From a phage: a stretch of 34,803 bases of DNA. Positions 22,410 through 27,059 of the stretch are shown here, one piece after another (positions within the stretch are counted from its first letter, which is position 1; each line of letters begins with the position of its first letter). The DNA is taken from assembly GCA_021149145.1 (NCBI GenBank), contig GCA_021149145.1_4322.1; one strand, given 5' to 3'. The position numbers and the translations under genes were made by a program. The notes beneath the pieces were generated by a model that was not told where the DNA came from, made no database searches, and saw only the letters and a program-made list of their open reading frames with translations.

Positions 22410-22822
22410 CTTATCATCTCTGCGAATGCCGCAAGAAAACCCTCTCTTCCATAAGCCACCGCTGCGAAACCGCCTGATTCACTTACGCTTTTTAGGAATG
22501 ACTTTTGCTCATTGCTAACTGGGCTTGCTTGCGTTTTACCAGCCCTCTTTAACTCTATGGCGCCAAATGGATAACCGCCACGCAATGACTCAGGTATCAG
22601 AAATAAGCAGTCTGACACACCTTTGAGAAGCCCCTTGGCTTGGTCTTTTCTTGCTTGACCAATGCTCTTTTTATTTTCGTTAATCGTGTGCCAGTAAACA
22701 ATCTGCGGATAGTTGTATTTCACCCAATCAGAGCAGAAGATTTGTTCATCGTCTTCCTTTGGGCATGACTTCACCGGTCCGCCATAGAACTCGAGGTAAT
22801 CACCTTTGTCTGTGATTTTCAT
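22403..22822 (-). CDS. VRR-NUC domain nuclease
   Basis: PD-(D/E)xK core: GVSDCLF...GAIELKR...SNEQKSF. Confidence 0.65.
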   Translation of the reverse strand: MKITDKGDYLEFYGGPVKSCPKEDDEQIFCSDWVKYNYPQIVYWHTINENKKSIGQARKDQAKGLLKGVSDCLFLIPESLRGGYPFGAIELKRAGKTQASPVSNEQKSFLKSVSESGGFAAVAYGREGFLAAFAEMIRK

Positions 22823-22823
22823 A

Positions 22824-24533
22824 TCAATCCTCCATCGTAAATGATTTGTTGGCGATAATATCTTGAGACTTCTGGTTTTTACGGTGTGTGATTCTCAATG
22901 GGGCACGGAATAGATGTGCATTTGTCATAATCATTCTAGCATTACGCAATCTGCCAATTCTGAATGCCTCATTCCTGTTATCGATGTGTGTTGAGCAGAA
23001 AGCCTTCCATTTAACAGAGCAAACGCGATGGTCTGATTCAGGGAAGAATGTTTCATAAGCTCGGAATCTGTCACCACTGTGAGCCATAACCTCATATGAA
23101 GCAATAATCCCTGACTGGTTCTTTGTTAACCCAATCTTGAAGTCATAAACTCGCAACCAGTCCCCCTTACGATACATTTTTCCTGATAACTTAGCATTCG
23201 GGTCTATGAGCATCTCACCACAGCATCTGCAATTCTTAGCTGCAATATCATTCTTCTCACCGCATCCTTTCTTGATGATAGCTTTGGTCTGTGGGTCCGC
23301 CATATCTTCACACAGTATAAACTGAAAGAAGTGCTCGCAACGCTTACCGTCAATTACATTATTACAACGCCGTGCGAACGGAGAGTTCTCATAAGAACAT
23401 GCCGGGCATACCCTAGGTTCATCACCTCCTTTCCTTGATGACTTAAACTTCTGGTCCTGAACTTCTTCTATAATTGGGTCAAAGTAAAGCTCTGCCATAT
23501 CGTCAAGCGTTCCGGCGAAATCGAGAACAACATGGTCTTCTTTTACCATCCCTGAATCCTTGTGTTTTTTCTTAAGAATTCGCATACCACGACCAAGCAA
23601 CTGAATGAGTAGAGTAATGCTACCAACCTTCCTCAGGATAATGCTTGTATCCCACGGGGGGCAGTTTACGCCAGTTGTGAGGCAACCAATCTGAAATATG
23701 AACTTATATTCTCCGTTGGCTGCCTTCTCAAGTATCTCTCTACGCTTCTTCTCACCAGTGGAGTTGGTAACTATCGCCCAAGTAACACCTTCTGGAAGTG
23801 CGGCTGCCGCCTCCTCGCAATGCCGTTTGCCAGCGCAAGTTACCAATGCAGCATTCCTTGTTTCCATAAACTTAGCAGCAAATCTCATTATCTTTTGTGT
23901 CATCGTTTGGTTTTCGTGAATCTTTGCAGCCATCGCATCCATTTCTTTCTTGCTGAAGTCCTTAACCCCATCACTTCCATCAGGAGTGAACTCACTAAGG
24001 TCGTAGCCCAAATCACCAACTTCACCGTAGACAGTAGGAACAACGAACCCCAAGTCAACAAGGTAGCTGGTTGGCACTTGCATTACAGTTTTGCGCCAGA
24101 ATCCACGGACATTTGGGTTACTAACTACAATGTGGTCGTTGTTACGGTACGGGCTACCAGTTAACCCAAAGATACGAAGTTCGCGACCGTACTTCTCCCT
24201 GCATCGACGCTTCATTTCGGTAATGATTAACGTGTATTGCGCGCGACCAGTGCCAAGAAGCCCGGTATTCACACCATCCTTAAAGACCATCTCACCATTC
24301 TTCGTGCTCATCTGCTCGAATGTTTCCTCATTCTCTTCAGCTTCTACGATATCCATATGGTCCACCATGTGGCAATTATGTGCCACGACCCCGTCAGCAA
24401 TGAAATTATGGTGCTCAGGCATCTCTATATCCCAAACAAGTTCCTTGCCAATTGGTGAGATGTCTTTAATTTTGCTTGATTTTGTATTCCACGCCATTTT
24501 CCATGTGCTTACTAATTCTCTTAAAAAACTCAT
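22824..24533 (-). CDS. intein C-terminal splicing segment plus helicase C-extein (SF2 motifs III-VI, Zn ribbons)
   Basis: Residues 31-53 (ELVWDIEMPEHHNFIADGVVAHN) are intein blocks F/G, followed by Cys54-HMVD. Later motifs are GLTGSP, LTTGVN, QLLGRGMR and the CxxC clusters CPACS...CNNV, CGEK...CRCCGE. The frame is closed upstream by a stop at 24552-24554. Confidence 0.75.
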   Translation of the reverse strand: MSFLRELVSTWKMAWNTKSSKIKDISPIGKELVWDIEMPEHHNFIADGVVAHNCHMVDHMDIVEAEENEETFEQMSTKNGEMVFKDGVNTGLLGTGRAQYTLIITEMKRRCREKYGRELRIFGLTGSPYRNNDHIVVSNPNVRGFWRKTVMQVPTSYLVDLGFVVPTVYGEVGDLGYDLSEFTPDGSDGVKDFSKKEMDAMAAKIHENQTMTQKIMRFAAKFMETRNAALVTCAGKRHCEEAAAALPEGVTWAIVTNSTGEKKRREILEKAANGEYKFIFQIGCLTTGVNCPPWDTSIILRKVGSITLLIQLLGRGMRILKKKHKDSGMVKEDHVVLDFAGTLDDMAELYFDPIIEEVQDQKFKSSRKGGDEPRVCPACSYENSPFARRCNNVIDGKRCEHFFQFILCEDMADPQTKAIIKKGCGEKNDIAAKNCRCCGEMLIDPNAKLSGKMYRKGDWLRVYDFKIGLTKNQSGIIASYEVMAHSGDRFRAYETFFPESDHRVCSVKWKAFCSTHIDNRNEAFRIGRLRNARMIMTNAHLFRAPLRITHRKNQKSQDIIANKSFTMED

Positions 24534-25514
24534 CTTGTGCCGACCTCGTTGTTATTGATACTGAGTAAAGCTCTCTCTTTTTCTTGCCGCCAATATAGCT
24601 TCTAACCTTAACTCCGTCATTAGCAATAAATGCTATTAGCGCATCAACTACTGATTGAACTTCACTCCTGCTAAATGATTCGGTGTGGATTTCTACAACC
24701 CTCTTCCCTGAGCTTACAGTGCAATGACCATCATCACCAAAGTAAGCAGCCCAACCAACTGGATCAAGCTCTCTGCATATCTTTCCAATATCGTAACCAT
24801 CCTTAGAATTTCCGTACTTATCAGCATATGAATCCAGAACTTTCGTACATGATGTTGATACGCAAAACCAGTTGTCGCCAAATCCAGGGTTTTTCTTCTC
24901 CCTGTATCTAGGGTTTAGTTTTGCAAACCTTTCAACCTTGCTTAGTGCGTGCTCCTTATTTCCAATATTCCAAGATAGCCTATGCGTTCCTTTTTCTGTA
25001 TTTTTAATCAAGCAACCATCACCAGCCATTGCCGCAAGAATGTTTTGATGTAAAAAGTCATCAACCTCCATTGATGGGTTGACGGTTGAATTATGATGCC
25101 CCGTTCTGTAATCCAAATAGAAATCGAAAGGGTTCTTAAGAAGTACGCCTAACCCCTTGCTTGAATGCGGCATAACTTTTTCACCACAGCCACACTTGCA
25201 CGCAGGAGCTTTTTCGTAAATTTGTCCTGCGAGCCGTCTAGCGACAGATTCATCCCAATACGAAGTTTTCCCGCTCCTACCCAGCAGCCGTTCGAATAAA
25301 GTTTGTGTGTACTCGTGCATTTTATTTCCTCTCCGCTTTCTAATTTAATTGATGATACATGTCTTACACCATTAGTAAAAACTCTTTTTGGCTTATGATA
25401 GAAGTAATCACCAGTGCTTTCGTTTATGCATTTTATTTTATGATTGATAAGGTCTTCGCTATCAATCCTCATCATCCCTGAATCGGTGGTTATCATCGTG
25501 TCTCCAGTTAAGCA
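24375..25514 (-). mobile_element. intein element in helicase motif II (1140 nt = 380 codons)
   Basis: Bounded by AIDE|CLTGDTMI (Cys codon 25514-25512) and VVAHN|CH (Cys codon 24374-24372). The two exteins are in the same frame. Confidence 0.8.
24466..25320 (-). CDS. double-motif LAGLIDADG homing endonuclease, separate ORF nested in the intein
   Basis: Carries LAAMAGDGCL and AAYFGDDGHC and ends ...VEYKIKQN. It has its own ATG 7 nt after GGAGAGGA. Its frame differs from both intein halves, and it is closed upstream by a stop at 25345-25347. Confidence 0.75.
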   Translation of the reverse strand: MHEYTQTLFERLLGRSGKTSYWDESVARRLAGQIYEKAPACKCGCGEKVMPHSSKGLGVLLKNPFDFYLDYRTGHHNSTVNPSMEVDDFLHQNILAAMAGDGCLIKNTEKGTHRLSWNIGNKEHALSKVERFAKLNPRYREKKNPGFGDNWFCVSTSCTKVLDSYADKYGNSKDGYDIGKICRELDPVGWAAYFGDDGHCTVSSGKRVVEIHTESFSRSEVQSVVDALIAFIANDGVKVRSYIGGKKKRELYSVSITTRSAQDEFFKRISKHMENGVEYKIKQN

Positions 25515-25958
25515 CTCATCTATCGCGATAACAGCAGGAGCATAGTCACCAAGCCCCTTAAACAAGCCGTTAGCAGCCGTTCCCTCACTAGCCACTATGG
25601 TTGGATAGTAAACTGATTTAACGTTAAGGCCAGCGCAATAGACGCTATTACGGATGCCGAAATTACGAAGTTCCTCTGCGTTCTGGCTGACAATCTCTGA
25701 CTGGCGAGATAGGACCATGTAAGGAAGGCCAAGCTGTTCCATTCGTTTCCCAATCATGGCGAGAATAATCGTCTTGCCAGCCGAAACCGATAGGTCTGCT
25801 ATGAATGGCGCTTCGTACTTGCCAATAGCCTTTCCGATTGCGTCAAATGTCACGCACTGGAATGGGTATGGTGTGATTTCTCCGAACTGATAATCATTTT
25901 GAATCTGCTTGATTTTATCTTGGTCAAAGTTTGCTACTAAGCGTTCTACTGGAAGCAT
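25149..25958 (-). CDS. helicase N-extein (motifs I-II) plus intein N-terminal splicing segment
   Basis: Walker A DLSVSAGKT, then AIDE followed at residue 149 by block A CLTGDTMI and block B CTSTHKL. It stops after 121 intein residues. Confidence 0.75.
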   Translation of the reverse strand: MLPVERLVANFDQDKIKQIQNDYQFGEITPYPFQCVTFDAIGKAIGKYEAPFIADLSVSAGKTIILAMIGKRMEQLGLPYMVLSRQSEIVSQNAEELRNFGIRNSVYCAGLNVKSVYYPTIVASEGTAANGLFKGLGDYAPAVIAIDECLTGDTMITTDSGMMRIDSEDLINHKIKCINESTGDYFYHKPKRVFTNGVRHVSSIKLESGEEIKCTSTHKLYSNGCWVGAGKLRIGMNLSLDGSQDKFTKKLLRASVAVVKKLCRIQARG

Positions 25959-26044
25959 TTTAAATATCCTGATAGTTCTTTAGTTCGTTGCATTGATGTA
26001 TAATAACAGCCATAGAACCCATTGTTTAACAAAAAGTGCTATTG
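25959..26044 (-). promoter_or_regulatory. promoter-leader cassette copy (helicase operon) in a divergent region
   Basis: Minus strand reads AATAGCACTTTTTGTTAAACAA, 16 nt, TATTAT, then ACATCAATGCAACGAAC... and the ATG. The box ends 10 nt before the ATG of the divergent HTH gene. Confidence 0.55.
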
Positions 26045-26054
26045 AGGTAATGAG

Positions 26055-26528
26055 ATGTGTAAAATTGACAAGCGAACTATTAACGGCAATAACGGGACCG
26101 TCCGCACGCAAGACAAGAAGCAACGCAAGCGACCTTCAGGCTACTACGTATTGAAAGATGAAGTAAAGGCTGGTCTACGCGCGCGTCTGGAAATGATTCT
26201 TGATTTCTACGGCACGAAAGCCAATATCGCCAAGCAGTTAAATGTATCTCACCAGACTGTAGAGCAATGGTTTAATCGCGGGATGATTTCGGCTCGAGGG
26301 GCTCAGAGAGCGCATAATGCGTACAAGCGAAATAAGGAAGGGTTCCGAGCTACATTCTGCCGACCAGACCTGCAATTCGACGGTAACGGAAAGCCGCTAA
26401 CACTTCGATGCAAGAAACGCCATATGCTTCGCGTAGTTACCGAGGCAGAACTAGCAATAAAACCACCCTGTCGACCGTGGCGCAAGAATAAGATTGCTAA
26501 CGAAGCAGCACGAAAAGCTAAAGGGTAA
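26055..26528 (+). CDS. HTH DNA-binding protein (Cro/YdaS-like), basic
   Basis: Contains GTKANIAKQLNVSHQTVEQWFNRGMIS. The N- and C-terminal regions are Arg/Lys-rich. Confidence 0.6.
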   Translation: MCKIDKRTINGNNGTVRTQDKKQRKRPSGYYVLKDEVKAGLRARLEMILDFYGTKANIAKQLNVSHQTVEQWFNRGMISARGAQRAHNAYKRNKEGFRATFCRPDLQFDGNGKPLTLRCKKRHMLRVVTEAELAIKPPCRPWRKNKIANEAARKAKG

Positions 26529-26579: not shown

Positions 26580-27059
26580 ATGAACTGGCATGATTATTTT
26601 TACTATGTAGATGGCAAATTGCATTGGAAGATTAGCACTGCAAGACGTGTTAAGGTTGGCGATGAGTGCAACTCACTATCTACATCTGGCTATTACAAAG
26701 TGTCTGTTAATGGCTTTAGGACTTATGTACATAGAGTTGTGTGGGAGATGTTTAATGGATAACTTCAAAATGGCGACTACATTGATCATATAAACCATAA
26801 CAAATTAGATAACAGAATAGAAAACCTAAGAGTAACAACAAATCAAGGTAACTCAAGAAATTGCAAGCTTAGCGTTTTATCAACAACTGGTTATTGTGGA
26901 GTGGCAAAGCTAAATCACGGAAAATTTAAGGCTCACATCACGGTTGACGGCAAGCAGCTACACCTTGGTAACTTCGATACTCCAGAACGGGCGTATAAAG
27001 TAAGAATTGAAGCAGAGAGAAAATACAACTTTCACGAAAATAACGGGTTAAGCAAATGA
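26580..27059 (+). pseudogene. HNH (HNH_3-type) plus AP2-domain homing endonuclease with an in-frame TAA at 26760-26762
   Basis: The ATG follows GGAGAGAAG. Translation is MNWHDYFYYVDGKLHWK...HRVVWEMFNG-TAA-LQNGDYIDHINHNKLDNRIENLRVTTNQGN...GVAKLNHGKFKAHITVDGKQLHLGNFDTPERAY, all in one frame. The stop overlaps the primase ATG (ATGA). Confidence 0.65.

Follow-up and report, generated by a model that had tools for sequence, protein, structure and literature searches.

Here, we describe a helicase gene that is interrupted by a split intein and an overlapping homing endonuclease (HE) gene in an Rtp/T1-like Escherichia coli phage (Drexlerviridae, Braunvirinae). The window, i.e., the whole stretch of 34,803 nucleotides (nt) that was analyzed and to which all coordinates refer, carries this locus on its minus strand at 22824-25958. 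Three open reading frames (ORFs) of this strand follow one another: the N-half ORF (25958-25149; 269 amino acids (aa); stop TAG at 25151-25149), the LAGLIDADG HE ORF (24466-25320; 284 aa; stop TAA at 24468-24466) and the C-half ORF (24533-22824; 569 aa). The two helicase halves share one frame, and the HE is read in the -1 frame relative to both. Neighboring ORFs overlap by exactly 172 nt (overlap 1, 25320-25149) and 68 nt (overlap 2, 24533-24466); an earlier note on this DNA had all of these coordinates and the encoded peptides right. Its claim that both overlaps are real dual-coding regions is borne out by suppressed wobble variation and by a recoding test, which are presented below.

Anatomy of the split helicase locus

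The N-half opens with the N-extein (25515-25958), the N-terminal part of a phage superfamily 2 (SF2; DEAH/DECH) helicase that ends in ...VIAIDE. Directly after ...AIDE, the intein nucleophile Cys1 (N-half residue 149; TGC at 25514-25512) begins IntN, the N-terminal split-intein half (25149-25514; 121 aa plus the TAG stop). IntN comprises block A (CLTGDT), block B (TSTHKL; CTSTHKL at 25319-25299), block N4 (WVGAGKLRIGMNLSL) and a 31-aa tail after N4 (DGSQDKFTKKLLRASVAVVKKLCRIQARG). On the other side of the HE gene, the C-half has the N-terminus MSFLRELVSTWKMAWNTKSSKIKDIS...VWDIEMPEHHNFIADGVVAHN, followed by CHMVDH. Its first 53 aa form IntC, the C-terminal split-intein half (24375-24533), with a head of ~16-20 aa and then blocks F and G, which end in ...VWDIEMPEHHNFIADGVVAHN. 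The intein is closed by C-half Asn53 (24377-24375), and Cys+1 (24374-24372) starts the C-extein (22824-24374 with the stop codon; CHMVDH...), the C-terminal part of the helicase.

A Pfam scan of the two outer ORFs returned Intein_splicing fragments and helicase domains, among them Helicase_C in the C-half at 1.7e-9. The exteins match the PHROG family phrog_16 (DNA helicase) at profile positions 253-385 (N-half) and 392-761 (C-half). Because these are neighboring stretches of the same profile, the two halves represent adjoining pieces of one helicase. In block A of the intein, the Cys at position 1 is invariant in 10 lineages. Invariant residues are also T215 and H218 of the block B T-x-x-H, and H52, N53, and C54, the terminal His-Asn and the Cys+1 nucleophile around the end of VWDIEMPEHHNFIADGVVAHN. 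Joined, IntN and IntC match the Spl DnaX mini-intein 7cfv (E = 4.9e-15); DnaB inteins match too. The 7cfv alignment covers IntN residues 2-88 and places IntC on 7cfv positions 100-137, and the IntN tail and the IntC head are left unaligned. Single halves scored 21.1 and 23.9 bits against Pfam PF14890, under the cutoff of 35.8 bits, as is expected for halves. An AlphaFold2 (AF2) model of the joined intein made without an alignment reached a predicted local distance difference test (pLDDT) score of 36, at which its predicted tail and head helices are not trustworthy.

The HE scored 29.8 bits against Pfam PF03161 (LAGLIDADG_2; cutoff 25) and 3.5e-8 against PHROG 11023. A sequence search of the HE against the PDB gave no match, and structural relatives came from a fold search. 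The AF2 model of the HE (pLDDT 86.6, predicted template modeling (pTM) score 0.80) had I-WcaI (6x1j) and I-SceI as top Foldseek matches (probability 1.0, E = 6e-10). The HE is thus confidently modeled as an I-WcaI/I-SceI-like single-chain LAGLIDADG fold with an extra N-terminal region of ~85 aa; the LAGLIDADG core begins only at about residue 88. Invariant residues mark both LAGLIDADG motifs, ILAAMAGDGC (25012-25041; G100, D101, G102) and WAAYFGDDGH (24724-24753; G195, D196, D197, G198). The N-terminal domain contains a CKCGCG motif (HE residues 41-46; 25183-25200) that is invariant in all lineages and is found in the dnaX-type relatives as well; the frame of the IntN tail reads the same bases as (R)ASVAVV.

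The HE start codon is composed of the last A of Lys213 and the TG of the block-B Cys214. Seven nt upstream of this ATG, a Shine-Dalgarno (SD)-like GGAGAGG (25328-25334) lies inside the SGEE codons of the N-half. HE residues 1-57 share their bases with block B, block N4, and the IntN tail in overlap 1 (25149-25320). Likewise, the C-half start is preceded by an SD-like GAGG (24544-24547) within HE codons, including an Arg codon AGG, and overlap 2 (24466-24533) encodes both the HE tail FFKRISKHMENGVEYKIKQN with its stop codon and the C-half head MSFLRELVSTWKMAWNTKSSKI. Two further in-frame start codons exist: HE Met50 (25171-25173), from which overlap 1 would shrink to 25 nt, and C-half Met13 (24495-24497), which had been noted earlier and from which overlap 2 would shrink to 32 nt. 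Neither is conserved.

Conservation and two-frame selection

The three-ORF layout is identical in the E. coli phages ES and AN_ECEAS, which align to the window without gaps. The Pectobacterium phages Amona, Ymer, Koroua, Abuela, and Sabo encode HEs of 41-42% identity (tblastn), and the three that were inspected (Amona, Ymer, Abuela) share the layout, their overlaps measuring 166 nt and 71 nt. Viral, metagenome, and genome collections and protein look-ups added lineages at 84, 76, 69, 54, 43, 37, 36, and 34% HE identity. Altogether, the layout is kept in at least 10 diverged sampled lineages, with the -1/+1 frame relation and with both overlaps open over 163-187 nt and 68-92 nt, respectively.

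The translation signals are conserved together with the frames. The HE ATG lies at the block-B codons xxA-TGC-ACn in every split lineage and has a purine-rich GG motif 7-10 nt upstream in all lineages, and the N-half stop follows 163-187 nt past this ATG in 10 lineages. The ATG of the C-half is located 68-92 nt before the HE stop in every split lineage, and GAGG, AGGA, or AGGGG stands 7-10 nt upstream of it in all lineages. This motif often coincides with an HE-frame Arg codon AGG, a rare codon in E. coli.

Within-clade changes in the HE core are 138 synonymous to 81 non-synonymous. Between the window and phage ES, 44 synonymous and 7 non-synonymous differences were counted in the N-extein and 79 and 28 in the C-extein. 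These ratios, together with the wobble and recoding tests described below, indicate that the helicase exteins, the intein blocks, and the HE are all under purifying selection. It has to be considered that the helicase is a decaying pseudogene, in which frameshift mutations or assembly errors disrupted a canonical intein and left overlaps without function. Such decay would fit the inconsistent GenBank annotations of this locus, with labels such as 'minor tail protein' and 'hypothetical protein', and the premature stop in a neighboring HNH gene of the window. However, cultured phages that were sequenced independently share the layout, as do metagenomes down to 34% HE identity, and purifying selection acts on both exteins, the intein blocks, and the HE. 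We thus regard decay as highly improbable, and the layout is neither an error nor a recent frameshift.

The labels themselves differ between records. In ES, the N-half is annotated as 'minor tail protein' and the C-half as 'putative single-stranded DNA binding protein', 'hypothetical protein' also occurs among the labels of ES and AN_ECEAS, and the annotation of AN_ECEAS omits the HE altogether. No intein was mentioned in any public record examined, including L001 (OR466728) and L002 (PP944860). The same element, with a 68% identical HE, is also found on an 11-kb scaffold of Pantoea eucrina (NZ_JAOBTT010000004.1), presumably a phage or prophage contig.

Wobble-identity and recoding tests were performed on codon alignments of 10 lineages. 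Codon-position-specific conservation, the check that the earlier note had proposed, gave a positive answer in both overlaps. Wobble identity in the HE frame is 0.37 in the core (0.27-0.43 in sliding 20-codon windows) and rises to 0.65 in overlap 1 (Mann-Whitney p = 6e-13) and 0.67 in overlap 2 (p = 4e-6). In the C-half frame it amounts to 0.68 in overlap 2 vs. 0.40 in the single-coding part (p = 1.5e-4). The N-half frame shows a smaller rise, from 0.45 in its single-coding part to 0.54 in block B-N4 (p = 0.03) and 0.59 in the tail (p = 0.014). Overlap 2 has an identity of at least 0.63 at all three codon positions of both frames. Variable sites within the clade point in the same direction, with 0.052 per nt in overlap 2 (Fisher p = 0.0012) and 0.091 per nt in overlap 1 (p = 0.037) compared to 0.124 per nt in the single-coding parts.

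In the recoding test, the protein of one frame was held fixed and its synonymous codons were redrawn. Amino acid identity of the second frame was 0.43-0.63 in the four segments of overlaps 1 and 2, compared to 0.19-0.32 expected (z = 15-25), and therefore both frames are constrained in both overlaps. Three non-overlapping controls showed little or no excess (0.25 observed vs. 0.23 expected, 0.30 vs. 0.22, and 0.31 vs. 0.31). Recoding of the HE further predicts ~1.6 stops per lineage in the host frame (helicase/intein) of overlap 1 and ~0.8 in overlap 2, whereas essentially none were observed. Given this excess in second-frame identity, the earlier proposal that one frame of each overlap looks like a by-product is not supported. 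The dominant frame is that of the intein in block B-N4, the only stretch with clear dominance, and that of the HE around CKCGCG, and neither frame dominates in overlap 2. There, the C-half head (consensus TW..AWNTK) is conserved at least as well as the HE tail. Conservation of this head and of HE residues 1-27 exceeds the by-product expectation.

Probable separate products and mobility of the element

We consider it likely that the locus is a fractured helicase gene in which a split intein and an overlapping -1-frame LAGLIDADG HE gene yield three polypeptides, two of which reassemble into a trans-spliced helicase. A mobile element consisting of the split intein and the HE gene would split the phage SF2 helicase at its motif II, with AIDE/AHMVDH as the empty allele. 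Three polypeptides would be made from their own starts, i.e., N-extein-IntN, the HE from the ATG in block B, and IntC-C-extein from the ATG in the HE tail. IntN and IntC would then associate and trans-splice into a DECH helicase, and the HE would cut intein-less alleles of co-infecting phages, upon which the whole element would be copied in. The 172 nt and 68 nt would be read in two frames because each ORF needs its start or stop inside its neighbor.

The conserved starts, the host-frame stops, and a natural deletion support the interpretation as three products, N-half, HE, and C-half, that had been suggested before. The host frame between the halves contains 10 stops in the window compared to 12.4 expected under neutral recoding, and other split lineages are alike in this. 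A metagenomic contig (L012:3001-3400; IMGVR_UViG_3300033155_001591) that is near-identical to lineage L011 up to CKCGCGEKTFP has lost most of the HE, from just after this sequence to ~70 codons before the HE end. Its N-half and C-half ORFs are intact with tail, head, SD-like motif, and ATG, but the halves are now in different frames, and therefore a single read-through product is impossible in L012.

If ribosomes underwent programmed frameshifting twice, by -1 in overlap 1 and by +1 in overlap 2, a single precursor with a cis-splicing intein and an in-frame HE domain would be made. Indeed, the halves share their frame and the HE is at -1, and thus a canonical intein would be regained through two shifts that cancel each other; a G GGA AAA heptamer (25272-25266, N-half frame) and G AAA AAG sites are available in overlap 1 of the window. 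However, no slippery heptamer is conserved across the lineages, G GGA AAA is confined to the coli-like clade, and a shift at this site would bypass block N4. RNA folding was confined to 81-nt segments that contain the two internal start codons, not the overlaps as a whole, and for the window as well as three relatives these segments revealed no structure beyond shuffled sequences (z -0.7 to +1.1) that could stimulate frameshifting. The two internal ATGs are conserved along with their SD-like motifs, host-frame stops occur at neutral density, and the L012 deletion leaves the halves in different frames. Taken together, a frameshifted precursor has very little probability in our view. One other lineage, L021, has A AAA AAC at the same offset as the G GGA AAA heptamer of the window.

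Translational coupling in the order N-half, HE, C-half, which had been deduced from the overlaps, is not supported by the start geometry. The start codon of the HE precedes the N-half stop by 172 nt, that of the C-half precedes the HE stop by 68 nt, and the N-half stop and the C-half start are 616 nt apart. Such a geometry is not of the stop-start type, and each start has its own conserved SD-like motif. A scan for promoters and terminators at 22700-26200 found no more sites than in shuffles.

The same layout could also be translated from the downstream starts, HE Met50 (25173) and C-half Met13 (24497), in which case the proteins would lack HE residues 1-49 and C-half residues 1-12 and the shortened overlap 1 would make termination-reinitiation coupling of N-half and HE plausible. 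Gene callers picked these codons among ES (Met50), AN_ECEAS (Met13), and the source record, a GGTG stands 8 nt upstream of Met50, and the LAGLIDADG core starts well behind it. Yet other lineages have Phe, Gln, or Ile in place of Met50, and L010, L016, L018, and L021 have Lys, Gln, or Thr in place of Met13, while the upstream ATGs with their SD-like motifs are found in every lineage. Moreover, the invariant CKCGCG lies upstream of Met50, and both HE residues 1-27 and the C-half head are better conserved than by-products should be. Use of the downstream starts is thus improbable, although less so than frameshifting or decay.

Some points weigh against the proposal of a fractured gene with three products. 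The start sites and separate translation, trans-splicing, and cleavage by the HE are all deduced from sequence. The lineages share descent, and the p-values given above thus overstate their independence. Wobble conservation could partly reflect constraint on the translation-initiation regions instead of a second peptide. Furthermore, L012 is known from a metagenomic contig only, and Met50 and Met13 could be used in the window, which would reduce its functional overlaps to the short versions.

The pattern of divergence bears a signature of mobility of the element. Compared to ES and AN_ECEAS, a stretch of the window that includes the intein, the HE, and ~800 nt of the 3' extein (25539-23581) differs at 11 of 1959 nt (0.56%). 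In contrast, the flanks differ at 56 of 457 nt (25996-25540) and 100 of 715 nt (23580-22866), which is 12-14%. This mosaic is of the type left by homing and would be expected if the element was transferred recently and its flanks were co-converted. The co-conversion tract is asymmetric and extends over ~30 nt at the 5' side and over ~800 nt at the 3' side.

Many related phages have an uninterrupted helicase gene. Phage TR1 (L003), for example, encodes AIDEAHMVDH at the site (residues 145-150; empty site GCAATAGATGAG/GCACACATGGTGGAC). As the empty allele reads DEAH and the occupied allele DE-intein-CH, the element sits in helicase motif II and supplies its own +1 Cys. Motif II of the spliced helicase would thus be DECH instead of DEAH, and its junction peptide would read ...VIAIDECHMVDH... 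The insertion sites in helicase and dnaX genes agree in 19 of 27 nt (ATHGAYGAG/TGYCACATG; window 25520-25512 plus 24374-24360 vs. L030 at ~2076). Both coincide with a Walker-B/DExH nucleotide-binding motif, and the element could in this way jump from one host gene to another, unrelated one.

The window contains a second gene of homing-endonuclease type, an HNH-AP2 gene on the plus strand (26580-27059) between a regulator gene and a primase gene. It has a premature in-frame TAA (26760-26762) where TR1 has GAA (...VVWEMFNG, stop, LQNGDYIDHINH...) and is because of this probably a pseudogene. ES and AN_ECEAS appear to lack the HNH-AP2 gene, as their annotated flanking genes are ~60 nt apart.

It is tempting to speculate that the IntN tail (...KLLRASVAVVKKLCRIQARG) and the IntC head (MSFLRELVSTWKMAWNTKSS) form a functional pair, e.g., two helices that aid association of the halves for trans-splicing. 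These peptides owe their existence solely to the overlap of the ORFs with the HE gene, and neither has a counterpart in the closest solved mini-intein. Although we judge such pairing to be rather unlikely, it would mean that new protein segments were born by overprinting and then recruited. The locus would then also represent a living intermediate between contiguous inteins with an out-of-frame HE, as in dnaX, and natural split inteins, in phages that grow on E. coli.

Relatives and known systems

HEs that are homologous to the HE of the window (25-31% identity) and share CxCGCG motifs and an (M/V)(E/D)YK tail are encoded in the -1 frame within contiguous inteins. These include inteins of cyanobacterial dnaX genes (L030-L033, L026, L023) and of helicases on large viral or metagenome contigs (L013, L024, L025, L027). 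In L024, L025, and L027, the HE ATG is again located on block-B K/I-C-T codons. The contiguous relatives have 0 host-frame stops over 315-351 codons compared to 6-11 expected, and none of 500 recodings reached 0. A different architecture is found in L039:2501-5038 (P0060), in which helicase, IntN, and HE share one frame that ends with a single TAA, and an ATG opens IntC-helicase a few bases further on in the same frame. This looks like a canonical intein that was split by one stop codon.

A word-based search for close in-frame relatives gave only proteins of 167-294 aa, and all 21 matches at E <= 1e-30 of an exhaustive profile search were of stand-alone size (124-304 aa). HE forms that are in frame with their intein appeared in the profile search only at E ~1e-15 (P0060, P0059, P0076). 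In a neighbor-joining tree of the HEs, which is midpoint-rooted and unbootstrapped and thus a rough guide, the split clade is monophyletic, the in-frame P0060 is nested among out-of-frame forms, and canonical in-frame inteins fall outside. The -1 relation is not recent, being common to the whole split clade and the contiguous dnaX-type relatives. Frame changes have occurred in this HE family, as the HE of P0060/L039 is in frame. If the frames of the window were uncoupled secondarily, as the earlier note had suggested, this event took place before divergence of the whole split clade.

The organization of the locus resembles the fractured genes of Dassa et al. 2009 (PMC2677866), in which split inteins flank a free-standing Vsr-like or GIY-YIG HE gene. 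In both cases, a phage-type gene of DNA metabolism is broken at an intein site, each half of the host gene is fused to one intein half, and the halves are adjacent on one strand with the HE gene between them. Dassa et al. reported that the 3' end of the HE gene overlaps the IntC gene by 6-69 bp in 15 loci; the corresponding overlap is 68 nt in the window and 68-92 nt in its relatives. They argued that the downstream start codon is supplied by the invading element. Here, too, the downstream half begins at a conserved start signal of its own, which is kept in L012, and this HE-deleted derivative has its equivalent in gp41-7 of their study. There are also differences. The HE described here belongs to the LAGLIDADG family and not to the Vsr-like or GIY-YIG families. 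Unlike the HE genes with hairpins in their 5' untranslated region (UTR), it has no 5' UTR or hairpin that could sequester the ribosome-binding site, and it starts 172 nt inside IntN, in block B. Furthermore, the host gene encodes an SF2 DEAH helicase of cultured enterobacterial siphophages, as opposed to a marine metagenomic read.

The second point of comparison is the cyanobacterial dnaX intein. Its HE in an alternative ORF is attributed to Gorbalenya 1998 by the preprints that cite it. Phillips et al. 2026 (bioRxiv 10.64898/2026.09.14.751524) describe the dnaX intein in detail and did not find the source of its HE. The element of the window and the dnaX intein have homologous splicing domains, as seen in the 7cfv match, and homologous HEs, and their insertion sites are similar. 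In both, the -1-frame HE overlaps the N-terminal splicing domain, here block B and N4, and the region before block F. However, the frame of the dnaX intein is open across the HE (0 stops vs. ~6 expected) and yields one cis-splicing precursor, whereas 10 stops close the host frame of the window and each half is provided with a stop or start of its own.

Actinophage inteins with HEs in separate reading frames were described by Gosselin et al. 2025 (bioRxiv 10.1101/2025.01.02.630785), who propose that a free-standing HE invades an intein, predict splitting as a frequent outcome, and suggest extein switching via shared nucleotide-binding motifs. As in these inteins, the HE of the window is encoded outside the intein frame of a phage intein. 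Their LAGLIDADG cases, however, have an antisense HE in a contiguous intein, unlike the same-strand HE and the split intein that is overprinted at both ends here. L039/P0060 also has a CxCGCG-type LAGLIDADG HE between the intein halves of a ResIII-type helicase, with the stop directly after a YK(L/I) tail. In contrast to the window, this HE is in frame with both halves, has no overlaps, and lacks the MH... N-terminus, and the TW..AWNTK head is missing.

The locus combines two rare arrangements that were known separately, i.e., it is a LAGLIDADG fractured gene whose HE is overprinted on both halves and is homologous to that of dnaX inteins. We found no description of this combination; the paper on phages Ymer and Abuela does not mention an intein. 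Natural split inteins, whose origin is still argued from few metagenomic loci, serve as important tools in protein ligation. A fractured gene is now at hand in cultured and genetically tractable phages, the coliphages ES and AN_ECEAS and the Pectobacterium phages Ymer, Abuela, and Amona, whose current annotations mislabel the N-half, HE, and C-half genes. The split form is tied to contiguous relatives, the dnaX intein and helicases of large phages, by homologous splicing domains, homologous HEs, and the same -1 frame, while Phillips et al. 2026 reported finding no such relative for the dnaX HE. The two overlaps also provide a well-replicated natural case of selection on both reading frames, and IntN (121 aa) and IntC (53 aa) represent a new candidate split-intein pair.

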